From Candidatus Harpocratesius repetitus (GTDB lineage Archaea; Asgardarchaeota; Lokiarchaeia; Sigyniarchaeales; Promethearchaeaceae), in contig JAIZWK010000001.1 in NCBI GenBank assembly GCA_021498095.1, forward strand, positions 1,860,001 to 1,892,000: DNA of 32,000 nt, given 5' to 3'. Below the pieces are notes generated by a model. It saw only the letters and a list, made by a program, of their open reading frames with translations, made no database searches and was not told the origin of the DNA. The translations under genes were made by a program, and so were the position numbers. How positions within the stretch are numbered: the first letter of the stretch is position 1; each line of letters starts with the position of its first letter. This document shows, piece by piece, positions 8,493 to 21,830 of the stretch.

Positions 8493-10331
8493 ATGCCACA
8501 ACCATTTCTTTGCTTGGGAATTGAATCCACCGCACATACATTCAGCGTAGGAATTGTAAATGATAAAGGTAATGTATTAGGACTTTCTTCAGATACATAC
8601 ATTCCTCCAAAAGGTGGATTAAAACCGACTGACGTGGTAGAGCATCATTATAATGTATTTGAGAAGCAACTTAAACAAGCTTTACAACAAGCTCAAGTTG
8701 ATTTAAAAGATATTCAATTAATTGCATTCAGCCAAGGACCCGGATTGGGACCATGTTTGAGAGTTGGAGCTGCAGTTGCTCGAACTTTGGCATTAAAATT
8801 AAAAATTCCACTAGTAGGTGTAAACCACTGTATTGCACATGTGGAAATTGGACGGGTGGCATGTAATTGCGATGATCCTCTTACAGTATATGTTTCTGGA
8901 GGAAATACAATTATCAGTGCCTTTGAATCAAATAGATATCAAATATTTGGAGAAACAATAGATATATCAATTGGCAATTTACTTGATATGGTTGCGAGAG
9001 ATCTTGGTATTCCCCATCCTGGTGGTCCAAAGATGGAGCAAATTGCTCTTAAAGGAAAAAATTTCATCAAAATTCCATATATCGTAAAAGGTATGGATCT
9101 TTCATTCTCAGGATTATATTCTTATTGTCGGAAAATGCTTCATGATAATGGATTACTTAAAGAATCAATAACAAAAAAAGCAGTTCAATCCCAGAAAAAG
9201 GTTATTTGTAAAGAAGATTTAGTATACTCTCTTCAAGAAACTGCATTTTCCATGATTGGAGAAGTATGTGAACGTGCTATTGCTCATACTCATAAAAAAT
9301 CTGTTCTACTTACAGGTGGAGTAGCCGCAAATCGACGACTTCAAAAAATCATTGCAGACATATGTGAACATCAGCAAGTTGATTTTAACGTAGTTCCAAG
9401 ACGATTGGCTGGTGATAACGGGGCTATGATTGCTTGGACTGGATTTTTACAATATCAAAACAGCGGAGAAACTTCTATTGAAAATTCTGAAATAATTCCA
9501 AAATGGCGTATGGACGATGTTCCAATTTCGTGGAGAGCTGTTCAAATATCTAAATCAAAATTTAGAGAAATAAGCAATACTTCAAGTTTTAGTGTTAGTT
9601 CTAATCCCCAAATTCAAAATTTATTTTCTCATTTTTTAAGGTCAACCAATGTTGATGGAAAGACGGGAATTTTAAGTAATTTCCTCCAAAATTTTGAAGT
9701 AATTGGGCACGGTGCTGAAGCAGTTTTAGTTCGAATCAATTGGTTTGATAAACCTGCACTTTTAAAATATAGAATTAAAAAATCTTATCGTATTTCAGCA
9801 ATAGATTTACCCTTGCGAATTCATCGAACTATTACTGAAGGACGACTCCTAATTTCTTTGTATCAAGCAGGGATTCCAGTACCTTTAGTTTATGATATAA
9901 TACCAAATGAAGCTGCTTTGATTATGGAATTTATTGAAGGGAATCGATTAAAAGATAAAATTCCAGAATTACCTACTCAAAAAATTCAACAGTATTCTTA
10001 TTTAATTGGAGAATATTTAGCTTTAATGCATAATCTAGAAATTGGCCATGGCGATTTAACCACCTCAAATGTAATCTTAAAGCCTAACCACCAGTTAATT
10101 TTACTTGATTTCGGATTAAGTGTTCCTGATGTTGGAATTGAAGAAAAAGCTATGGATATTCATTTATTTCAGCGCGTAATTAAAAGTTCTCATGGAGATT
10201 ATTTTGATTTAATGGTTCCTGCATTTTTGGATGGTTACAAGCATCAAATTGCTGGTAATTATGAAGAAATTATGGAGCGGGTGGAAAAAATATCCTTACG
10301 TGGGAGATACATCTCTAAATCACTTCGATAA
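8493..10331 (+). CDS. kae1: Bifunctional KEOPS Kae1 (TsaD)-Bud32 fusion, t6A tRNA modification
   Basis: LGIESTAHT, FSQGPGLGPCL, VNHCIAHVEIG, VYVSGGNT, GGVAAN, DNGAMIA (Kae1); GAEA, HGDLTTSN, LLDFGL, E.KAMD.HL (Bud32 kinase). Confidence 0.97.
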   Translation: MPQPFLCLGIESTAHTFSVGIVNDKGNVLGLSSDTYIPPKGGLKPTDVVEHHYNVFEKQLKQALQQAQVDLKDIQLIAFSQGPGLGPCLRVGAAVARTLALKLKIPLVGVNHCIAHVEIGRVACNCDDPLTVYVSGGNTIISAFESNRYQIFGETIDISIGNLLDMVARDLGIPHPGGPKMEQIALKGKNFIKIPYIVKGMDLSFSGLYSYCRKMLHDNGLLKESITKKAVQSQKKVICKEDLVYSLQETAFSMIGEVCERAIAHTHKKSVLLTGGVAANRRLQKIIADICEHQQVDFNVVPRRLAGDNGAMIAWTGFLQYQNSGETSIENSEIIPKWRMDDVPISWRAVQISKSKFREISNTSSFSVSSNPQIQNLFSHFLRSTNVDGKTGILSNFLQNFEVIGHGAEAVLVRINWFDKPALLKYRIKKSYRISAIDLPLRIHRTITEGRLLISLYQAGIPVPLVYDIIPNEAALIMEFIEGNRLKDKIPELPTQKIQQYSYLIGEYLALMHNLEIGHGDLTTSNVILKPNHQLILLDFGLSVPDVGIEEKAMDIHLFQRVIKSSHGDYFDLMVPAFLDGYKHQIAGNYEEIMERVEKISLRGRYISKSLR

Positions 10332-13913: not shown

Positions 13914-15308
13914 CTATTTTTCAAATTCTTGAATCTTTGAAATCACATCATTTAACGAGAGATTGGAATTTTGATCTCCTGTAATAAAATTTTTCAAAGT
14001 ATACCTCTTTTGTTCTTGTTCTTTTGGGCCTAAAAACAAAAGAAAAGGTATTTTCATCCGATTAACAAATTTACTTACTGAGCGAAATGAACGATTCATG
14101 ATATCTATTTCCACCCGAATTCCATTTTTACGTAAAATTTTTGCAATTTCAATCCCAAAAGTTTGTGTTTCTGCTTTTGTTCCTATGAAAATTTCTGATC
14201 TTGGTTGTTCTGGTGGAAATTTCTCTTGACGCTCTAATGCAAGAATTATACGATCAAATCCAAAGGAGAAACCTAATGCTGGAGTTTCTTCACCTCCAAA
14301 GGCGCGAATCATTTCATTATAACGACCTCCGCCACAAATTTGTTTTTGCTTTCCTAAAACCGGAACATCAATTTCAAAAACAATATTTGTATAATAATCT
14401 AAACCTCGAGCAATACCGCAGTCTATTACATAATTCTTGATATCTGCTGCTTCAATAAGAGTGCTAACACGCTGAATTTTAGATTTGCTTATTGCTTCGA
14501 GCGTCTTCGGATATTCGCTAAACAGTTGATTTAAACGAGATATTATATCTGCAGATTTCCCAGTCATATATAAAAGTTGCTCCAAGCGTTCAATAATTGC
14601 TTGTGGGATCTTCTCTTCTTGCATCGATCCATAATAATCATTAAGAATGTTTTGTTCTGTCTGTTCTTCGTCCAATGCTCCTATTTCTAATTTTCGGAGC
14701 AGACTTGTGATTCTATCAACTATTCCAAATATCTTTTTTTGCTGTGATGGCGAAAGTTTTTCTTCCTCCAAATATGATCGTAATATGGTTAGATCATTAA
14801 TTCTAAGAATATAATCTTGCATTTCAAACCGTTCCATAACATTCATTGCGACAATTAACATTTCTGCATCTGCTGTGGCTGTATCCGCCCCAAAAATTTC
14901 AATTCCTGCTTGAGTAAATTGTCTAAAACGTCCAGGTGCAGGTTCATCATATCGAAAACACGGACCAATATAGTAGTATTTTTGAGGTTTGGGTCGATAC
15001 ATTAATTCACTTGTGATATAAAACCGCGCTAAAGATGCAGTATATTCAGGACGGAGCGCATAAAGTGCTGGATTTTCATCGGCGCGGTGTTTTGGAGGAT
15101 CATAAAATGTAAAAATATCATTAATGATTTTTTCACCAGATCTTTTTTTATAAATTTCGAAAAACTCATACATTGGCAGTTCAATTTGCTCAAAACCAAA
15201 AGATTGAAAGATTTTTTCAAGTTTGATATAAACTTCTCGTCTTTTCTTCATCTCTTCAGGTAGAAAATCAATAGTACCAGAAGGTCTCTGTAAATTTATT
15301 TTTTCCAT
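13914..15308 (-). CDS. hisS: Histidine--tRNA ligase
   Basis: PSGTIDFLP, LRPEYTASLAR, motif 2 CFRYDEPAPGRFRQFTQAGIE, ARGLDYYT, ICGGGRY, motif 3 PALGFSFGFDRI, C-terminal anticodon-binding domain. Confidence 0.98.
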   Translation of the reverse strand: MEKINLQRPSGTIDFLPEEMKKRREVYIKLEKIFQSFGFEQIELPMYEFFEIYKKRSGEKIINDIFTFYDPPKHRADENPALYALRPEYTASLARFYITSELMYRPKPQKYYYIGPCFRYDEPAPGRFRQFTQAGIEIFGADTATADAEMLIVAMNVMERFEMQDYILRINDLTILRSYLEEEKLSPSQQKKIFGIVDRITSLLRKLEIGALDEEQTEQNILNDYYGSMQEEKIPQAIIERLEQLLYMTGKSADIISRLNQLFSEYPKTLEAISKSKIQRVSTLIEAADIKNYVIDCGIARGLDYYTNIVFEIDVPVLGKQKQICGGGRYNEMIRAFGGEETPALGFSFGFDRIILALERQEKFPPEQPRSEIFIGTKAETQTFGIEIAKILRKNGIRVEIDIMNRSFRSVSKFVNRMKIPFLLFLGPKEQEQKRYTLKNFITGDQNSNLSLNDVISKIQEFEK

Positions 15309-15595
15309 TTCTTTTTCGCTTTGCTCGGCCAGAAGGACTCACCATTAAATTATTTGATTTTTATTCAAGGCTAATATTCAATCAATTCTACTAATATAAC
15401 TTCAGCAATAATATTTTTGCTTTAATCGAGGCTGCTAATTAGAAAAGAATGTGCCATTAACTATCAAAACTTAATTACACCCAAAAACATGATTTTATTT
15501 TTAAAAAGAATATCGAAATATTCTCATCTCTTGATTATGGCAATATAATGATTTGATCTGTAAAAAATTGTCATTGTCATTGTCTCAATTAAGGA

Positions 15596-15683
15596 AATGA
15601 TTTTAAATAGAAAAGCATTGATTTTAACTAGCAAAGTAATGATTTAACTAGAAAAACAATGATTTTAATTAGAATAACAATCA
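15596..15683. repeat. Four degenerate ~21-bp tandem repeats (consensus AATGATTTTAAnTAGAAAAnC) in the hisS / membrane-protein divergent intergenic region
   Basis: Units at 15596-15616, 15617-15637, 15638-15657 and 15658-15678, read directly. Confidence 0.8.
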
Positions 15684-15725
15684 TAAGTGTTAATTGTTAA
15701 TGCAAGAAATTTTAGGTGATTAAAA

Positions 15726-17030
15726 GTGAAAATTATTGAACGAATCCAAGCTTTTGATGTTGTACGCGGTTTTGCGGTAATTTTTATGGTTATTCTTCAT
15801 ACCGGTCTTCATGAATGGCTTGGTGCACAAGAACTTGAAGGTGGGGAACAGCAGGCTGATCCCGTAATGGGCTTCCTTATCTTCTTTTTGACAATCGCAG
15901 GAGTCTATTCTACAATATTAGTGGCTGTTAACAGCTATATGTTTTATCGACGTATAGAATCAGGAAAAAATACTCCTACTCAGCTTACATACTATGGGCT
16001 TTTTCTCGGAATATTTTTAATAGCGCTGAATTTCGTGTTTCGGATATTTTTAAGTGGCGATTCTGGTTGGTTATATTTTTTAGTTAAAAATGGAAATCCC
16101 ACCTTTTCAGAGCCATTTTGGCTTGTAAGTAGTTCCGCTTTAACAATTTTAGGTTTAAATTCTATCTTAGTCCCCCTTATTATGCGAATTCTTAATTCTC
16201 GACTTACAAGTGGATTGAAAAATCGTCAAGTCTATGTTATTCTCTTTTGGATGGGTTCATTAATTTTATTATTAACATTACCTTTCCGTTGGATGGGAGC
16301 TCCTGTAGTTGATTCGTTAATTGATTCTCACCGCTATGTATTAGCATGGATTCTCGGTTGTTTTGTATATGATAATTTTCCTCTATTCCCATTTGTAGCT
16401 TATGCTTGTTTTGGTGCTATTTTAGGTATTGCTTTAGCACGAAAAGAAAAACCTAAATATATTTTAGAGTATACATGGTTTCAAACAATATTTTGGTTCG
16501 GAGTTGGATTTCTTGGAATGTATTCTCTTGGGGGTATTCATCCCGGCTTAATCTATGAAACTTCTCGAATTGCTCTATTGGAAGATTTCTTTAGGCATAT
16601 CACTCAGTTGGGTGTGGTGTTTCTTTTCTTTAGCTTGGCATTATCCATCGTCGATTTCGCACCTCATGATAGAAAAATTCGCCGTATTAAAGGATTTCGT
16701 TTTATTACTCGTTATGGAATGATTTCACTCACAGTATATATTTTTGAGGCGTTTTTTTCTGGGTTAATAACTGGTTTATTAAATTTAATCCCTGCATTTC
16801 ATAATTGGAATGCTTCTCTTATGTGGGTAATTGTATTAGGTGTTGTTTTAGCTGGTTTATGGGGTGTAGCGGCTAAATTCTGGGAGAAAGTGGGATATAA
16901 GTATTCTGTGGAATGGTGGTTAATTTGGATCGCAGGAAAATTTTCGGGAAAAAAGAGTGAGAAATATCAAATGGAACGGATTTCACAGCAAGATTCATCT
17001 AAACTTGCTGAACCTGAAAAAATATCATAA
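15726..17030 (+). CDS. Multi-pass membrane protein, DUF1624 / HGSNAT-like acyltransferase family
   Basis: RIQAFDVVRGFAVIFMVILH N-terminal signature, FPLFPF and SLTVYIF segments, many hydrophobic helices; AGGTGA SD before the GTG start. Confidence 0.8.
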   Translation: MKIIERIQAFDVVRGFAVIFMVILHTGLHEWLGAQELEGGEQQADPVMGFLIFFLTIAGVYSTILVAVNSYMFYRRIESGKNTPTQLTYYGLFLGIFLIALNFVFRIFLSGDSGWLYFLVKNGNPTFSEPFWLVSSSALTILGLNSILVPLIMRILNSRLTSGLKNRQVYVILFWMGSLILLLTLPFRWMGAPVVDSLIDSHRYVLAWILGCFVYDNFPLFPFVAYACFGAILGIALARKEKPKYILEYTWFQTIFWFGVGFLGMYSLGGIHPGLIYETSRIALLEDFFRHITQLGVVFLFFSLALSIVDFAPHDRKIRRIKGFRFITRYGMISLTVYIFEAFFSGLITGLLNLIPAFHNWNASLMWVIVLGVVLAGLWGVAAKFWEKVGYKYSVEWWLIWIAGKFSGKKSEKYQMERISQQDSSKLAEPEKIS

Positions 17031-17212
17031 AATGAAAAATATTTTGTAATTCACTTGTTTATTCTGCAAAAAAGAAGAAAAAGATAACTAGAATCGCACA
17101 GACTGGCCATATTGGAGTTCTGCATCTTTTACACCGATATTAATTTTTAATCAAGAAGGGATTTGAAGATAATGCTAAAAATCCTTATGATGAAGGGAAA
17201 TAAAGAGAGAAG

Positions 17213-17312
17213 TGGCCCGACCCGGAATTGAACCGGGGTTATACGGGTTTAGCTGCTTGAAGATGCATCAAACATCCACAACCGTACCGTCTAGCCACTA
17301 ACATATCGGGCC
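17213..17312 (-). tRNA. tRNA-His(GUG) with 28-nt intron at 37/38 (intron 17248-17275); discriminator A73; CCA not encoded
   Basis: Acceptor GGCCCGA/UCGGGCC, U8, D-loop AGUGGCUA, anticodon stem UACGG/CCGUA, loop UU-GUG-G|C, T-arm CCCGG-UUCAAUU-CCGGG; 72-nt mature body plus intron with bulge-helix-bulge geometry. Confidence 0.93.
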
Positions 17313-17778
17313 TGCGTATACAAATGAATGATTAAAAGAATCATAATTGGCTAAAAAAATTTGCGGCACATACAATGAAATTTTAAATTTAGATAATTTA
17401 AGAATAAGAGGATTTAGGAAAATTTAATTTTTATGATTTTTTGACTATTTTTAAGAATGAAGGATCAATTAAGAGAAGCCTTATTTTTTAAATTATTTCA
17501 ATATTATCGTTCAAAAAAATCTCATTGACAATTTCATTGAAGTTTTAGAGCAAAACATACACTATTTATTAAAAGAAAAATATTACAATTAATTTAGAAT
17601 GTAGATTTAAAGGTCTTTGATATTTTAAATATAACTAAAAATATGCAGAACAAAGAATAAAAAAATTCACGAATATAATATCATATACTATTAAATGCAA
17701 AATTATTCGTAGTTCTTAAAAACAGAAACATTAAATCTTATTTGGTTGGTGTAGAAAATCCCTCTTTTTTTTATCTTC

Positions 17779-19522: not shown

Positions 19523-21253
19523 TTATTTTTCTTCATCTATAGCTTTTAATAAAGAAGGTAGTTGAGAGGGTAAAATAATTGAAAAATGTTTGAAATTTGA
19601 TAATGCACCTTCTGATTTTACAATAAAAGGGTAGAATTTAGCATTGGTATTGCATAAACCTTTTAAAATTTCTTTTTTATCTTTTGAAGCTTCATTAATA
19701 ATTCTACGACACCAAAAAGGATTTTCTTTAAATTCTAATATTTTTTTTGCCTTTTTTTCCAATTTCTTCTGCCATTTCAAATCATTTTTTAAAAATTTGC
19801 CTGAATCGAAATGATCAAGAATATCAGAAAGAACTTTTTTACATTCTAAAATTAGCACTTTGGATCCTTTTACAGCAACCACATCAAATTCCATAAAAGA
19901 ATTATAATGGAGAAATTTCTCAATTTCTATAATTGGAAAAGGCCAATCGTTAAATTGATTCTTCATTTTTTTATATAATTTGTATTTTGGATATTTTTTA
20001 TTAATTGGGCCCCGAAATATAAGTTTACATGGAGAATAGCCGTTATCTTGACATATTTGAGCAACTTCTTTTTCAAAAATATTTCCACAATACTGCCTAA
20101 TTTCAGCTGATTTTGAAAGATTGAAAATATAATGCAGATAAGCCGTAAAAATTTGATAAATTGAAGTATAATAAAATCCCATAGAATAAAAGCCGATATA
20201 TTGTTTGATCTTACTGGTAAAAACCATAAAAGTATTTAGATCAAATTTTTGAATAATATCTTCTTCAGAGGAAAATTCCGGAAATTTATGCTTTTGATTC
20301 TCTAAAAAGAATTGGTTTATAAAGAATTTCAATTCTTCAGGATTAAAAACTTGAGATAGTTCTTTATTTATTGAATAAGGATCTAATCCGATACATACAT
20401 TTGTATTGCGCCTTCTATTTCTTTTTACATTTTTTTTATTTTTGGAATACTTTTTGGTTTTTGATATATAATCATACTTATAAAGGATTTTATGGAAAAG
20501 TATCTGAAAAGCTTTAAACTTTTTGATTATTTTTTCCTTCGATTTTGGTAGATGTTCAATAAAATAATCCCTAATTGCTTCAAAATGCAGCGGTTCAAAC
20601 CATTTTTGAGAAAATATTATTAGTGTTATTTTCAAAAATATGTGATCTGCGGGTTTTCCTAAATTTTTATGAACATCTATTAGCTTTGAAAAATATTCCA
20701 TTTCCGACATATTGTTTGAATAAAAATTGAGATAGAAAGAATGAAATTTTGTTATCAATTCATCAACCAATTTTCCTGTATAAAACTTTTCAAAATCGGA
20801 AAATGCTTTTACTGCAGGAAAATTCTTGAGAATTTCAAAATTAGGATACATATAAAAAACAGCATTGATATTTTTATTTTCCGACCCTCCTAATTCTTTT
20901 AACGTTTCTTTAGAAATTAGAGCGTTATGTAAACAGCTAAAATTTAGCGGGAGTTGAAGCTTAGGTGATAAATTAACAAATTTTTTTGGATTTTTTATAG
21001 GCATGTAATAATTTGCTATCGCTAATACATATAATGCCCCTAAACCAAAATCCAGTTTTGATCCTAACTCTTGACTTGTAAATGTTTGGTGGGTTGGGAG
21101 ATAATATTTAGGGAAAAATCTAACCATATAAGTAAATGCAATTGAGATACTTTCTTTTAGATTAAATTGATGCATATTTCGGATAAAATTATACATCTTA
21201 ACCTTTCCCTGCTCATTTAAAAGATTCTCAATTTGAAATGTTGATTGAGACAT
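19523..21253 (-). CDS. Hypothetical protein with C-terminal PD-(D/E)xK (NERD/restriction-endonuclease-like) domain
   Basis: GNIFEKEV...EFDVVAVKGSKVLILECKK (19838-19891). ATG 21253 or 21262 is more plausible than the track's 21319, which overlaps the upstream stop. Confidence 0.65.
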   Translation of the reverse strand: MSQSTFQIENLLNEQGKVKMYNFIRNMHQFNLKESISIAFTYMVRFFPKYYLPTHQTFTSQELGSKLDFGLGALYVLAIANYYMPIKNPKKFVNLSPKLQLPLNFSCLHNALISKETLKELGGSENKNINAVFYMYPNFEILKNFPAVKAFSDFEKFYTGKLVDELITKFHSFYLNFYSNNMSEMEYFSKLIDVHKNLGKPADHIFLKITLIIFSQKWFEPLHFEAIRDYFIEHLPKSKEKIIKKFKAFQILFHKILYKYDYISKTKKYSKNKKNVKRNRRRNTNVCIGLDPYSINKELSQVFNPEELKFFINQFFLENQKHKFPEFSSEEDIIQKFDLNTFMVFTSKIKQYIGFYSMGFYYTSIYQIFTAYLHYIFNLSKSAEIRQYCGNIFEKEVAQICQDNGYSPCKLIFRGPINKKYPKYKLYKKMKNQFNDWPFPIIEIEKFLHYNSFMEFDVVAVKGSKVLILECKKVLSDILDHFDSGKFLKNDLKWQKKLEKKAKKILEFKENPFWCRRIINEASKDKKEILKGLCNTNAKFYPFIVKSEGALSNFKHFSIILPSQLPSLLKAIDEEK

Positions 21254-21296
21254 AATTTTCATCACTTTTTTACATAGGAAAAAAAAGATCGATAAT

Positions 21297-21830
21297 TTAA
21301 AATAAATTAATTTGATCATCTAGTAGTTTTTTTTTGGTGGATTTTTTCTTTTTTACCGTTATTTTTTTCTTCTTTTTCGCTCCTGCTCCTTTCAATTTAT
21401 TTTCAGAATCAGCCAATGCTTTCTCCACCGCTGCCAAAGGATCGGTCGGTAGATTTTCAATATTTTTATTATCTGATTCAGATTCTTCTACATTATCGGC
21501 AGTTTCAAAAGAAAATTCATCCTTTTTATTTCCTTTTCCCTTCTTTTTCATTGATTTTTCATCGGGATAAACCACAGTTTCACTGTCTGAAATTCCGGCT
21601 TCGGTAATGAAAAACGAACAGGATTCGGGAGGTAAATCGGGAGCATCAACAATAATTGCAGTACGTTCTAAACTTTGATTGGCAGAAAACCCTTTGGTCT
21701 TGAACTGAATTCGAAAATGACAGCCGTGAGCGACAATATTACCTCCAATAGCATCATCTGCTGAAAAAGTCCCTTTCATTTGGGTGGCAACTTGATTTGT
21801 AACCAGCACAGCAATGTTGTAGGTTTCAGC
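21297..21830 (-). pseudogene. radA: 5'-truncated RadA/Rad51-family recombinase (C-terminal part plus long acidic/Lys-rich tail)
   Basis: AETYNIAVLVTNQV...GGNIVAH...R.A.IVDAPDLP...F.ITEAGISD. Homology starts abruptly at ~21830, with an in-frame TGA a few codons upstream and no Walker A/B. Confidence 0.8.

Follow-up and report, generated by a model that had tools for sequence, protein, structure and literature searches.

The genome of Candidatus Harpocratesius repetitus, an Asgard archaeon, appears to encode a single functional, intron-containing tRNA-His, the mature form of which probably starts at G1, carries A73 as the discriminator and is charged by the linked histidyl-tRNA synthetase (HisRS) without the additional guanosine at position -1 (G-1). 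The gene lies in the window analyzed here, i.e., the whole stretch of 32,000 nucleotides from this genome. G-1 is a near-universal feature of tRNA-His, with the known exceptions restricted to one alphaproteobacterial clade, a few protists and a nematode mitochondrion (PMC9976931). Our survey showed that A73 without an encoded G-1 is no one-off but a lineage trait, found in several families of Asgard archaea.

The tRNA-His gene, its parts and the two protein-coding genes next to it are laid out below:

17213..17312, minus strand: tRNA-His(GUG) gene of 100 nt, reduced by splicing to a tRNA of 72 nt (ARAGORN with introns, RF00005, the covariance model R1 and a scan for GUG tRNAs)
17276..17312, minus strand: 5' exon, tRNA positions 1-37, with the acceptor strand GGCCCGA, the D arm, the 5' strand of the anticodon stem and the loop up to G37 (sequence, ARAGORN)
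17248..17275, minus strand: intron of 28 nt after position 37 (ARAGORN, precursor fold)
17213..17247, minus strand: 3' exon, positions 38-73, with the 3' strand of the anticodon stem, the 4-nt variable loop, the T arm, the acceptor strand UCGGGCC and the discriminator (sequence, ARAGORN)
17277..17279, minus strand: anticodon GUG, positions 34-36 (sequence, ARAGORN)
17313, minus strand: position -1, an A and not a G, for which no pairing with A73 is possible (sequence)
17213, minus strand: discriminator N73, an A, with no encoded CCA (CUUCUC comes next; sequence)
15726..17030, plus strand: ORF of 434 aa between the tRNA-His gene and hisS, with no Pfam family
13914..15308, minus strand: hisS, coding for the presumed partner HisRS (464 aa; PF13393, TIGR00442)

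The acceptor stem is formed by 7 bp between GGCCCGA (17312-17306) and UCGGGCC (17220-17214), with G1:C72 as its 1:72 pair, and is followed by U8 and A9. The anticodon stem is UACGG/CCGUA, with a 7-nt loop (UUGUGG, the intron and then C38) in which U33 is present, while the T arm comprises the 5-bp stem CCCGG/CCGGG and the loop UUCAAUU. When introns were allowed, ARAGORN reported a tRNA-His(gtg) with a 28-nt intron at 37/38. The Rfam model RF00005 matches 17213-17312 end to end (model positions 1-71) with 47.6 bits (gathering score, 29), and the gene is the top match in the genome of our tRNA-His covariance model R1 (64.6 bits). Neither ARAGORN with default settings nor a window-wide Rfam scan at the gathering score called a tRNA at this locus, presumably because of the intron. 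In the minimum-energy fold, the precursor keeps all four arms (-40.1 kcal/mol, z = -3.2), and the intron prolongs the anticodon arm as a helix. In the same fold, the 3' splice site lies inside a 3-nt bulge (AA|C) and the 5' splice site is not in the textbook 3-nt bulge, which amounts to a relaxed bulge-helix-bulge motif. Thus, the locus shows the hallmarks of a tRNA-His: a cloverleaf fitting the tRNA model, GUG in a 7-nt loop with U33 and, as shown below, compensatory changes in its helices.

The gene resembles the canonical archaeal and bacterial tRNA-His in its cloverleaf, GUG anticodon, 4-nt variable loop and nearly all other positions. It departs from the canonical form, in which an encoded G-1 is paired with C73, in having A at 17213 (position 73) and A rather than G at 17313 (position -1). 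A73 with no encoded G-1 is also the state of the eukaryotic cytosolic tRNA-His, to which Thg1 adds G-1 without a template (PMC3245924). A first-pass annotation of this DNA had already given the coordinates, the acceptor stem and both end bases, all of which were borne out by the sequence, ARAGORN and RF00005. It had also considered that the A at 17213 might be a sequencing error; this can be set aside because A73 recurs in 27 other Asgard tRNA-His genes.

The genome is closed, in one contig of 4,361,485 bp with 31% G+C, and the window gene is its sole tRNA-His. A scan of both strands for a T arm and a 7-bp acceptor pair enclosing a YUGUGR loop recovered no credible second GUG tRNA, and the canonical G-1:C73 copy that the first-pass annotation had proposed looking for was found nowhere in the genome. 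The other genomic matches of R1 are tRNAs for Gly, Glu, Val, Gln, Ser, Lys and Leu and a two-intron tRNA-Asp, with no further tRNA-His among them. ARAGORN's "tRNA-His(atg)" at G000:C1:2122064-2122165 (-) is in fact tRNA-Ala(GGC), with G3:U70, A73 and an intron that the program misplaced at a non-standard site; likewise, the second match in this genome of the sequence pattern used in the survey below (at 2779364) is not a tRNA. One might still suppose that the window gene is not expressed, has become a pseudogene or stems from a faulty assembly, with the canonical tRNA-His sitting elsewhere, given that ARAGORN finds only 36 tRNAs in a genome where many of them have odd introns. Against this, the genome is a single contig, three independent searches came up without another GUG tRNA, A73 orthologues with compensatory changes occur in 27 other genomes, and the gene stays within 5 kb of hisS across its family. 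This supposition is hardly credible, and a hidden canonical tRNA-His gene is very unlikely.

Several other tRNA genes drew our attention in these searches. ARAGORN missed a tRNA-Asp(GUC) in which the D loop and the T loop are each interrupted by an intron (G000:C1:4189681-4189805 (-)), and called a selenocysteine tRNA (UCA) at G000:C1:1668826-1668915 (+), which scores 31.8 bits with RF00005. In the tRNA-Gln(UUG) at G000:C1:3307938-3308027 (+) and in L042 from another genome (G117), a 5-bp stem leads into the loop CCUUGAC or CCUUGAA; barring an intron or a shift of the stem, position 33 would be occupied by C rather than U. L042 had been a candidate tRNA-His and was rejected as a tRNA-Gln. The Gln-like acceptor (A1:U72 with A73) of some relatives raised the idea that this tRNA-His arose from tRNA-Gln through an anticodon change; a comparison within its own genome revealed no special similarity to tRNA-Gln.

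We then surveyed position 73 and the -1 base across the Asgard archaea by a pattern search of 221 genomes combined with fetching of the flanks, with orthologues in the window's family (f1) located via the flanks of hisS. The pattern (YTGTGG...GGTTCRANNCC) is blind to family f3, which has A37 in the loop, and to several f1 genes with other T stems. When 40 relatives were searched by BLAST with the window gene, every match fell on the T arm of a Val, Pro, Leu or Arg tRNA, and no orthologue was retrieved. The survey yielded 28 A73 genes from seven families (f1, f4, f7, f10, f17, f19 and f28), with U at -1 in 17, A in nine, C in one and G in one. They span the whole of f1. Besides the window gene, those read are:

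f1, G002 (the window's genus) and G006: U at -1, A1:U72, A73
f1, G013 and G011: A at -1, A1:U72, A73
f1, G012: G at -1, A1:U72, A73
f1, G005: U at -1, G1:C72, A73
f1, G003, G004 and G009 (genera g2 and g3): U at -1, A73
f4, G016 and G018: U at -1, A73
f7, G044: A at -1, A73 followed by CCA
f10, eight genomes: A73, with U, U, C, U, A, U, U and U at -1
f28, two genomes: A73, with A and A at -1
f19, three genomes: A73, with U, A and A at -1
f17, two genomes: A73, with U and U at -1

A CCA is also encoded after A73 in all the f10, f28 and f17 genes read and in one of the three from f19. Most of f1 has A1:U72, as opposed to the G1:C72 of the window gene.

The C73 state was seen in eleven families in all, and each of the 20 C73 genes read with its flanks has G at -1. 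These comprise G014 (f2), G042 and G046 (f6), two genes of G045 (f7) and ten f3 genomes, with G-1:C73 also verified from the flanks in f11, f12, f16, f18 and f26. For f14, f31 and most f26 genomes, C73 comes from pattern matches alone, with N-1 unread. The canonical G-1:C73 form is thus found in the sister families f2, f3, f6, f11, f12, f16, f18 and f26 (C73 only for f14 and f31). Across the Asgard archaea, there is accordingly a strict coupling: C73 goes with an encoded G-1, and A73 goes without one. Both states occur inside one Heimdall-type class (f10, f19, f26, f27, f28, f30 and f31), since A73 is found in f10 (19 genomes), f19 and f28 and C73 in f26 (17 genomes of 2.4-5.9 Mb) and f31. Family f10 fits a Heimdall-type family, with two closed genomes of one genus that fit Ca. 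Heimdallarchaeum.

A few genes from the survey stand apart. The tRNA-His at position 932 of L085 (G012) is the one A73 gene with G-1, either by chance or as an encoded version of the eukaryote-like G-1/A73 arrangement. L093 (G046:C270) and L091 (G045:C3) are extra tRNA-His genes in tight tRNA clusters beside the canonical gene (Pro-His-'stop' and Asn-His-Gly); these clusters perhaps belong to mobile elements or are of foreign origin. In the L093 copy, G-1 is combined with A73 and with a mismatch at C1/A72. L094 (G003:C772), on a 3-kb contig, is a bacterial-looking tRNA-His with G-1, C73 and the D loop AGCTCAATTGGTTAGAGC, and is probably contamination (the contamination of this MAG is 4%).

To assess the A73 genes as a group, we aligned 25 of them to the tRNA model and found 97.9% of the cells in helices to be paired, in an alignment that was fitted to the model and thereby favors pairing. 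In the same model-fitted alignment of 25 genes, both partners have changed in 18 of the 21 pairs, and the covariation score reaches 0.84, compared to 0.20 for shuffles and at most 0.16 for slid partners. Because the helices have been kept through compensatory changes, the A73 genes are, on the evidence of their sequences, working tRNAs under structural selection. When compared with 21 C73 genes, position 73 is the sole position in the tRNA that consistently separates the two groups. Two further contrasts appear in the alignments (A2 and A3): pair 51:63 is G:C in all 21 C73 genes and variable in the A73 genes, and G10 is invariant in the C73 group only. The pair C50-G64, which neighbors 51:63, is listed as an identity element of an archaeal HisRS (PMC9976931).

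The -1 base of the A73 genes tells a different story from position 73. Among 24 tRNAs of the window's genome, -1 is T in ten, A in nine, C in three and G in two. The -1 bases of the A73 genes can hence be viewed as ordinary, unconserved background because tRNAs throughout the genome also mostly have T or A there. The excess of U-1 (17 of 28), which we considered as a signal of U-1:A73 pairing, is indistinguishable from this tRNA-wide distribution. These figures bear on the alternative that RNase P leaves on the encoded -1 base (often U, which is able to pair with A73) and that the HisRS needs just any -1 nucleotide or a well-placed 5' phosphate. U is indeed the commonest -1 base in these genes, and the HisRS of Aeropyrum pernix reportedly accepts G-1, A-1 and C-1 (PMC9976931). 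However, A-1 faces A73 in the window gene, and A is at -1 in nine of the 28, leaving no pair that could shift RNase P; U or A at -1 is the background in all tRNAs of this AT-rich genome; and an identity element should be conserved, which the -1 base is not. We therefore regard retention of an encoded -1 base as quite improbable, and return to a mature tRNA-His that would lack any extra 5' nucleotide.

The other route to a -1 nucleotide is its addition after transcription. The first-pass annotation had offered two readings of this gene, namely a Thg1 with eukaryote-type untemplated activity or a G-1-independent pair of HisRS and tRNA, and had advised a search for Thg1 or a Thg1-like protein. 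A six-frame search of the closed genome with PF04446 (Thg1) gave a best match with an E-value of 0.02 (16 bits) and three stops inside it, and PF14413 gave no match. A tblastn search of this genome with 11 Asgard Thg1-family ORFs had a best E-value of 0.29. The Thg1 branch is consequently unsupported, and the G-1-independent pair is left as the better reading: the sole tRNA-His has A73 and no encoded G-1, in a genome where these searches detected no Thg1.

The same search finds Thg1 elsewhere. It detected the protein in Methanosarcina, used as the positive control, and PF04446 scored above the cut-off in 11 of the 221 Asgard genomes, from families f14, f15, f18, f20 (4/4), f21, f22 and f24 and one f3 genome. 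Among the sampled genomes of the A73 families, largely incomplete MAGs for which an absence means not found in those searched, it was detected in 0/12 of f1, 0/24 of f10, 0/14 of f17, 0/8 of f19, 0/3 of f4 and 0/3 of f28; for f1, the scan of the 221 genomes gave a further tally of 0/3. Thg1 was also not found in the sampled genomes of f12 and f26, which encode G-1. It is conceivable that G-1 is still added opposite A73 by an enzyme unrecognizable as Thg1, be it a Thg1-like protein that has diverged strongly or a nucleotidyltransferase with no relation to Thg1. In favor of this, eukaryotes combine A73 with an untemplated G-1 (PMC3245924), G-1 itself is near-universal (PMC9976931), and the conserved arginines as well as the motif 2 Gln are retained in several A73 HisRS lineages. 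Yet neither the six-frame HMM searches nor tblastn with the 11 Asgard proteins found a Thg1, the sampled A73 families yielded none in a search that detects it in other Asgard families and Methanosarcina, and the G-1 pocket loop of the window HisRS is remodeled. On balance, such a hidden enzyme is unlikely.

The remodeled pocket belongs to the product of the hisS gene located 1.9 kb downstream of the tRNA-His gene. This protein matches PF13393 (1e-48) and TIGR00442 hisS (349 bits, cut-off 286.75) and falls under the cut-off for the HisZ paralogue (TIGR00443, 219 bits against 271.65); by these scores, 13914-15308 codes for a true HisS. Its nearest relatives in named records, at 70% identity, come from a 'Promethearchaeota archaeon' MAG and an uncultured archaeon. 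In an alignment to solved structures, the motif 2 loop reads RYDEPAPGRFRQF in the window HisRS against RHERPQKGRYRQF in the E. coli HisRS, such that Arg116 of the latter is replaced by Glu and Gln118 by Ala. In the Thermus thermophilus HisRS, G-1 is held by Arg115, Arg122 and the R71-G72-G73-R74 pocket of the other subunit, and in the Caulobacter HisRS Asp-Asp replaces the two pocket glycines (PMC4357726). Counting back from the conserved LRPE, the pocket loop of the window HisRS has E-N-P-A with an insertion of about seven residues and no Gly-Gly. The f10 HisRS has K-D-D-R at the pocket positions, with Asp-Asp in place of the two glycines as in Caulobacter.

These changes fit the loss of a G-1 pocket, yet they do not constitute a rule. 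Gly-Gly is also absent in the C73 enzymes of f6 and f7, which have A-D, A-G or A-E at the glycine positions. Loss of the motif 2 Gln118 was rejected as a general marker of A73, as this residue is kept in f10, f17, f19 and f28 and absent in the C73 family f26. Hence, no single HisRS signature follows A73 everywhere. The altered HisRS loop pointed out by the first-pass annotation is thus real in this enzyme, with Arg116 to Glu, Gln118 to Ala and a remodeled pocket, but is no general correlate of A73.

In a maximum-likelihood tree of 27 Asgard HisRS sequences, the A73-linked enzymes fall into three well-supported clades, each of which adjoins C73 enzymes:

Clade 1: f10, f17, f19 and f28, adjoining f3
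Clade 2: f1 genera g2 and g3, adjoining f26
Clade 3: f1 genera g1, g4, g5 and g6 with f4 and G044, adjoining f6 and G045

The A73 label requires three changes on this tree against a mean of seven for shuffled labels, and 0 of 500 shuffles had as few. Judging from the tree, changes at the tRNA end coincide with changes of enzyme lineage, either at least three times or via transfer of the enzyme. Family f1 has two unrelated HisRS lineages with 28% identity (g1 and g4-g7 versus g2-g3), both with A73, suggesting that hisS was replaced at some point inside this family. The two genes are 0.1-5 kb apart in f1 and G044 (13914-17312 in the window; L080, L081, L083, L084, L085 and L088), and in f17 the tRNA-His gene lies directly upstream of hisS (G190:C26 and G216:C13). 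In f10, they are unlinked, at about 135-140 kb from each other. If they travel together, the genes of a co-evolving pair of HisRS and tRNA-His could be transferred in one step.

Together, these observations suggest how the system might operate. Splicing of the intron and ordinary RNase P cleavage at +1 would most likely yield a mature tRNA-His starting at G1, with A73 and no extra 5' nucleotide. The genome has a candidate RNase P RNA, which is full length and scores 58.5 bits, under the Rfam cut-off of 84. The linked HisRS would then most likely charge this tRNA without G-1, presumably recognizing it by the GUG anticodon, the discriminator A73 and the terminal part of the acceptor helix. A G-1-independent pair of HisRS and tRNA would fit all of the evidence.

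Such pairs are a known kind of system. G-1-less tRNA-His and a matching HisRS are found in the Caulobacter-type alphaproteobacteria (PMC3064791; PMC9976931, PMC4357726). The window's genome shares with these A73, no encoded G-1, no detected Thg1 and an enzyme lineage that co-varies with the tRNA. Unlike the Caulobacter type, the putative Asgard system is archaeal, and its tRNA-His gene in the window has an intron. The 1:72 pair also differs, being G1:C72 in the window and A1:U72 in most of f1 rather than G1:U72; thus, the Caulobacter identity base U72 is absent from the window tRNA. The pocket of the window HisRS is altered via an insertion (E-N-P-A) rather than the Asp-Asp of Caulobacter. G-1-independent pairs are also found in Trypanosoma brucei and Acanthamoeba castellanii (PMC4338351, PMC3561963). 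The likeness to these lies in A73 and a genome with no Thg1, with G-1 being absent from their tRNA and not encoded here, and structures of the trypanosome HisRS (198 and 190 bits) outscore the bacterial ones as matches for the f10 enzyme. While the protist cases are secondary losses within eukaryotes, the Asgard state is present in several archaeal families. The Asgard system differs from the general eukaryotic one in that no Thg1 was found in the window's genome or the sampled A73 families, and the HisRS structures that come closest to the window enzyme are those from Thermoplasma and Staphylococcus, not the human one.

As far as our literature search reached, this is the first putative G-1-independent pair to be found in Archaea. 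A 2023 review of identity elements assigns '-1, C73' to archaeal tRNA-His and lists no exception among the Archaea (PMC9976931). Our search of the full-text literature, with most subscription journals outside its scope, found no prior report of an A73 or G-1-less tRNA-His in Archaea, and a preprint on the CCA enzymes of Asgard archaea makes no mention of tRNA-His. The first-pass annotation had allowed that A73 might prove both common and already reported in the lineage; the former holds across the Asgard archaea, and for the latter we found no report.

The Asgard archaea are the closest archaeal relatives of eukaryotes, which lends the occurrence of this state among them added interest: the supposedly universal mark of tRNA-His has probably been dropped in an archaeal branch close to the eukaryotes. 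A 2012 review of Thg1 placed the change from C73 to A73 in early eukaryotes. A tentative and rather doubtful extension of our results is that an A73, G-1-less tRNA-His was already present in the Asgard lineage ancestral to eukaryotes, with the G-1 added by Thg1 re-imposed later. Were this true, eukaryotic A73 would be inherited rather than a eukaryotic invention, and the untemplated addition of G-1 opposite A73 would represent a later re-imposition of the mark. The timing of A73, and whether the untemplated activity of Thg1 evolved on an A73 tRNA, can be tested in cultured organisms; we take f1 to be the Loki-type family to which the cultured strains belong. The Asgard versions also offer natural pairs of HisRS and tRNA-His that are maybe orthogonal to the canonical ones.

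Elsewhere in the window, 8493-10331 (plus strand) codes for a 612-aa protein in which Kae1 (TsaD) is fused to a Bud32/RIO-type kinase, a fusion that occurs in many archaea. In the region 19523-21809 (minus strand), an ORF of 170 aa matches just the last third of the Rad51 fold and overlaps the start of a 598-aa ORF without a Pfam family; these two ORFs may represent a split or interrupted RadA-like gene.
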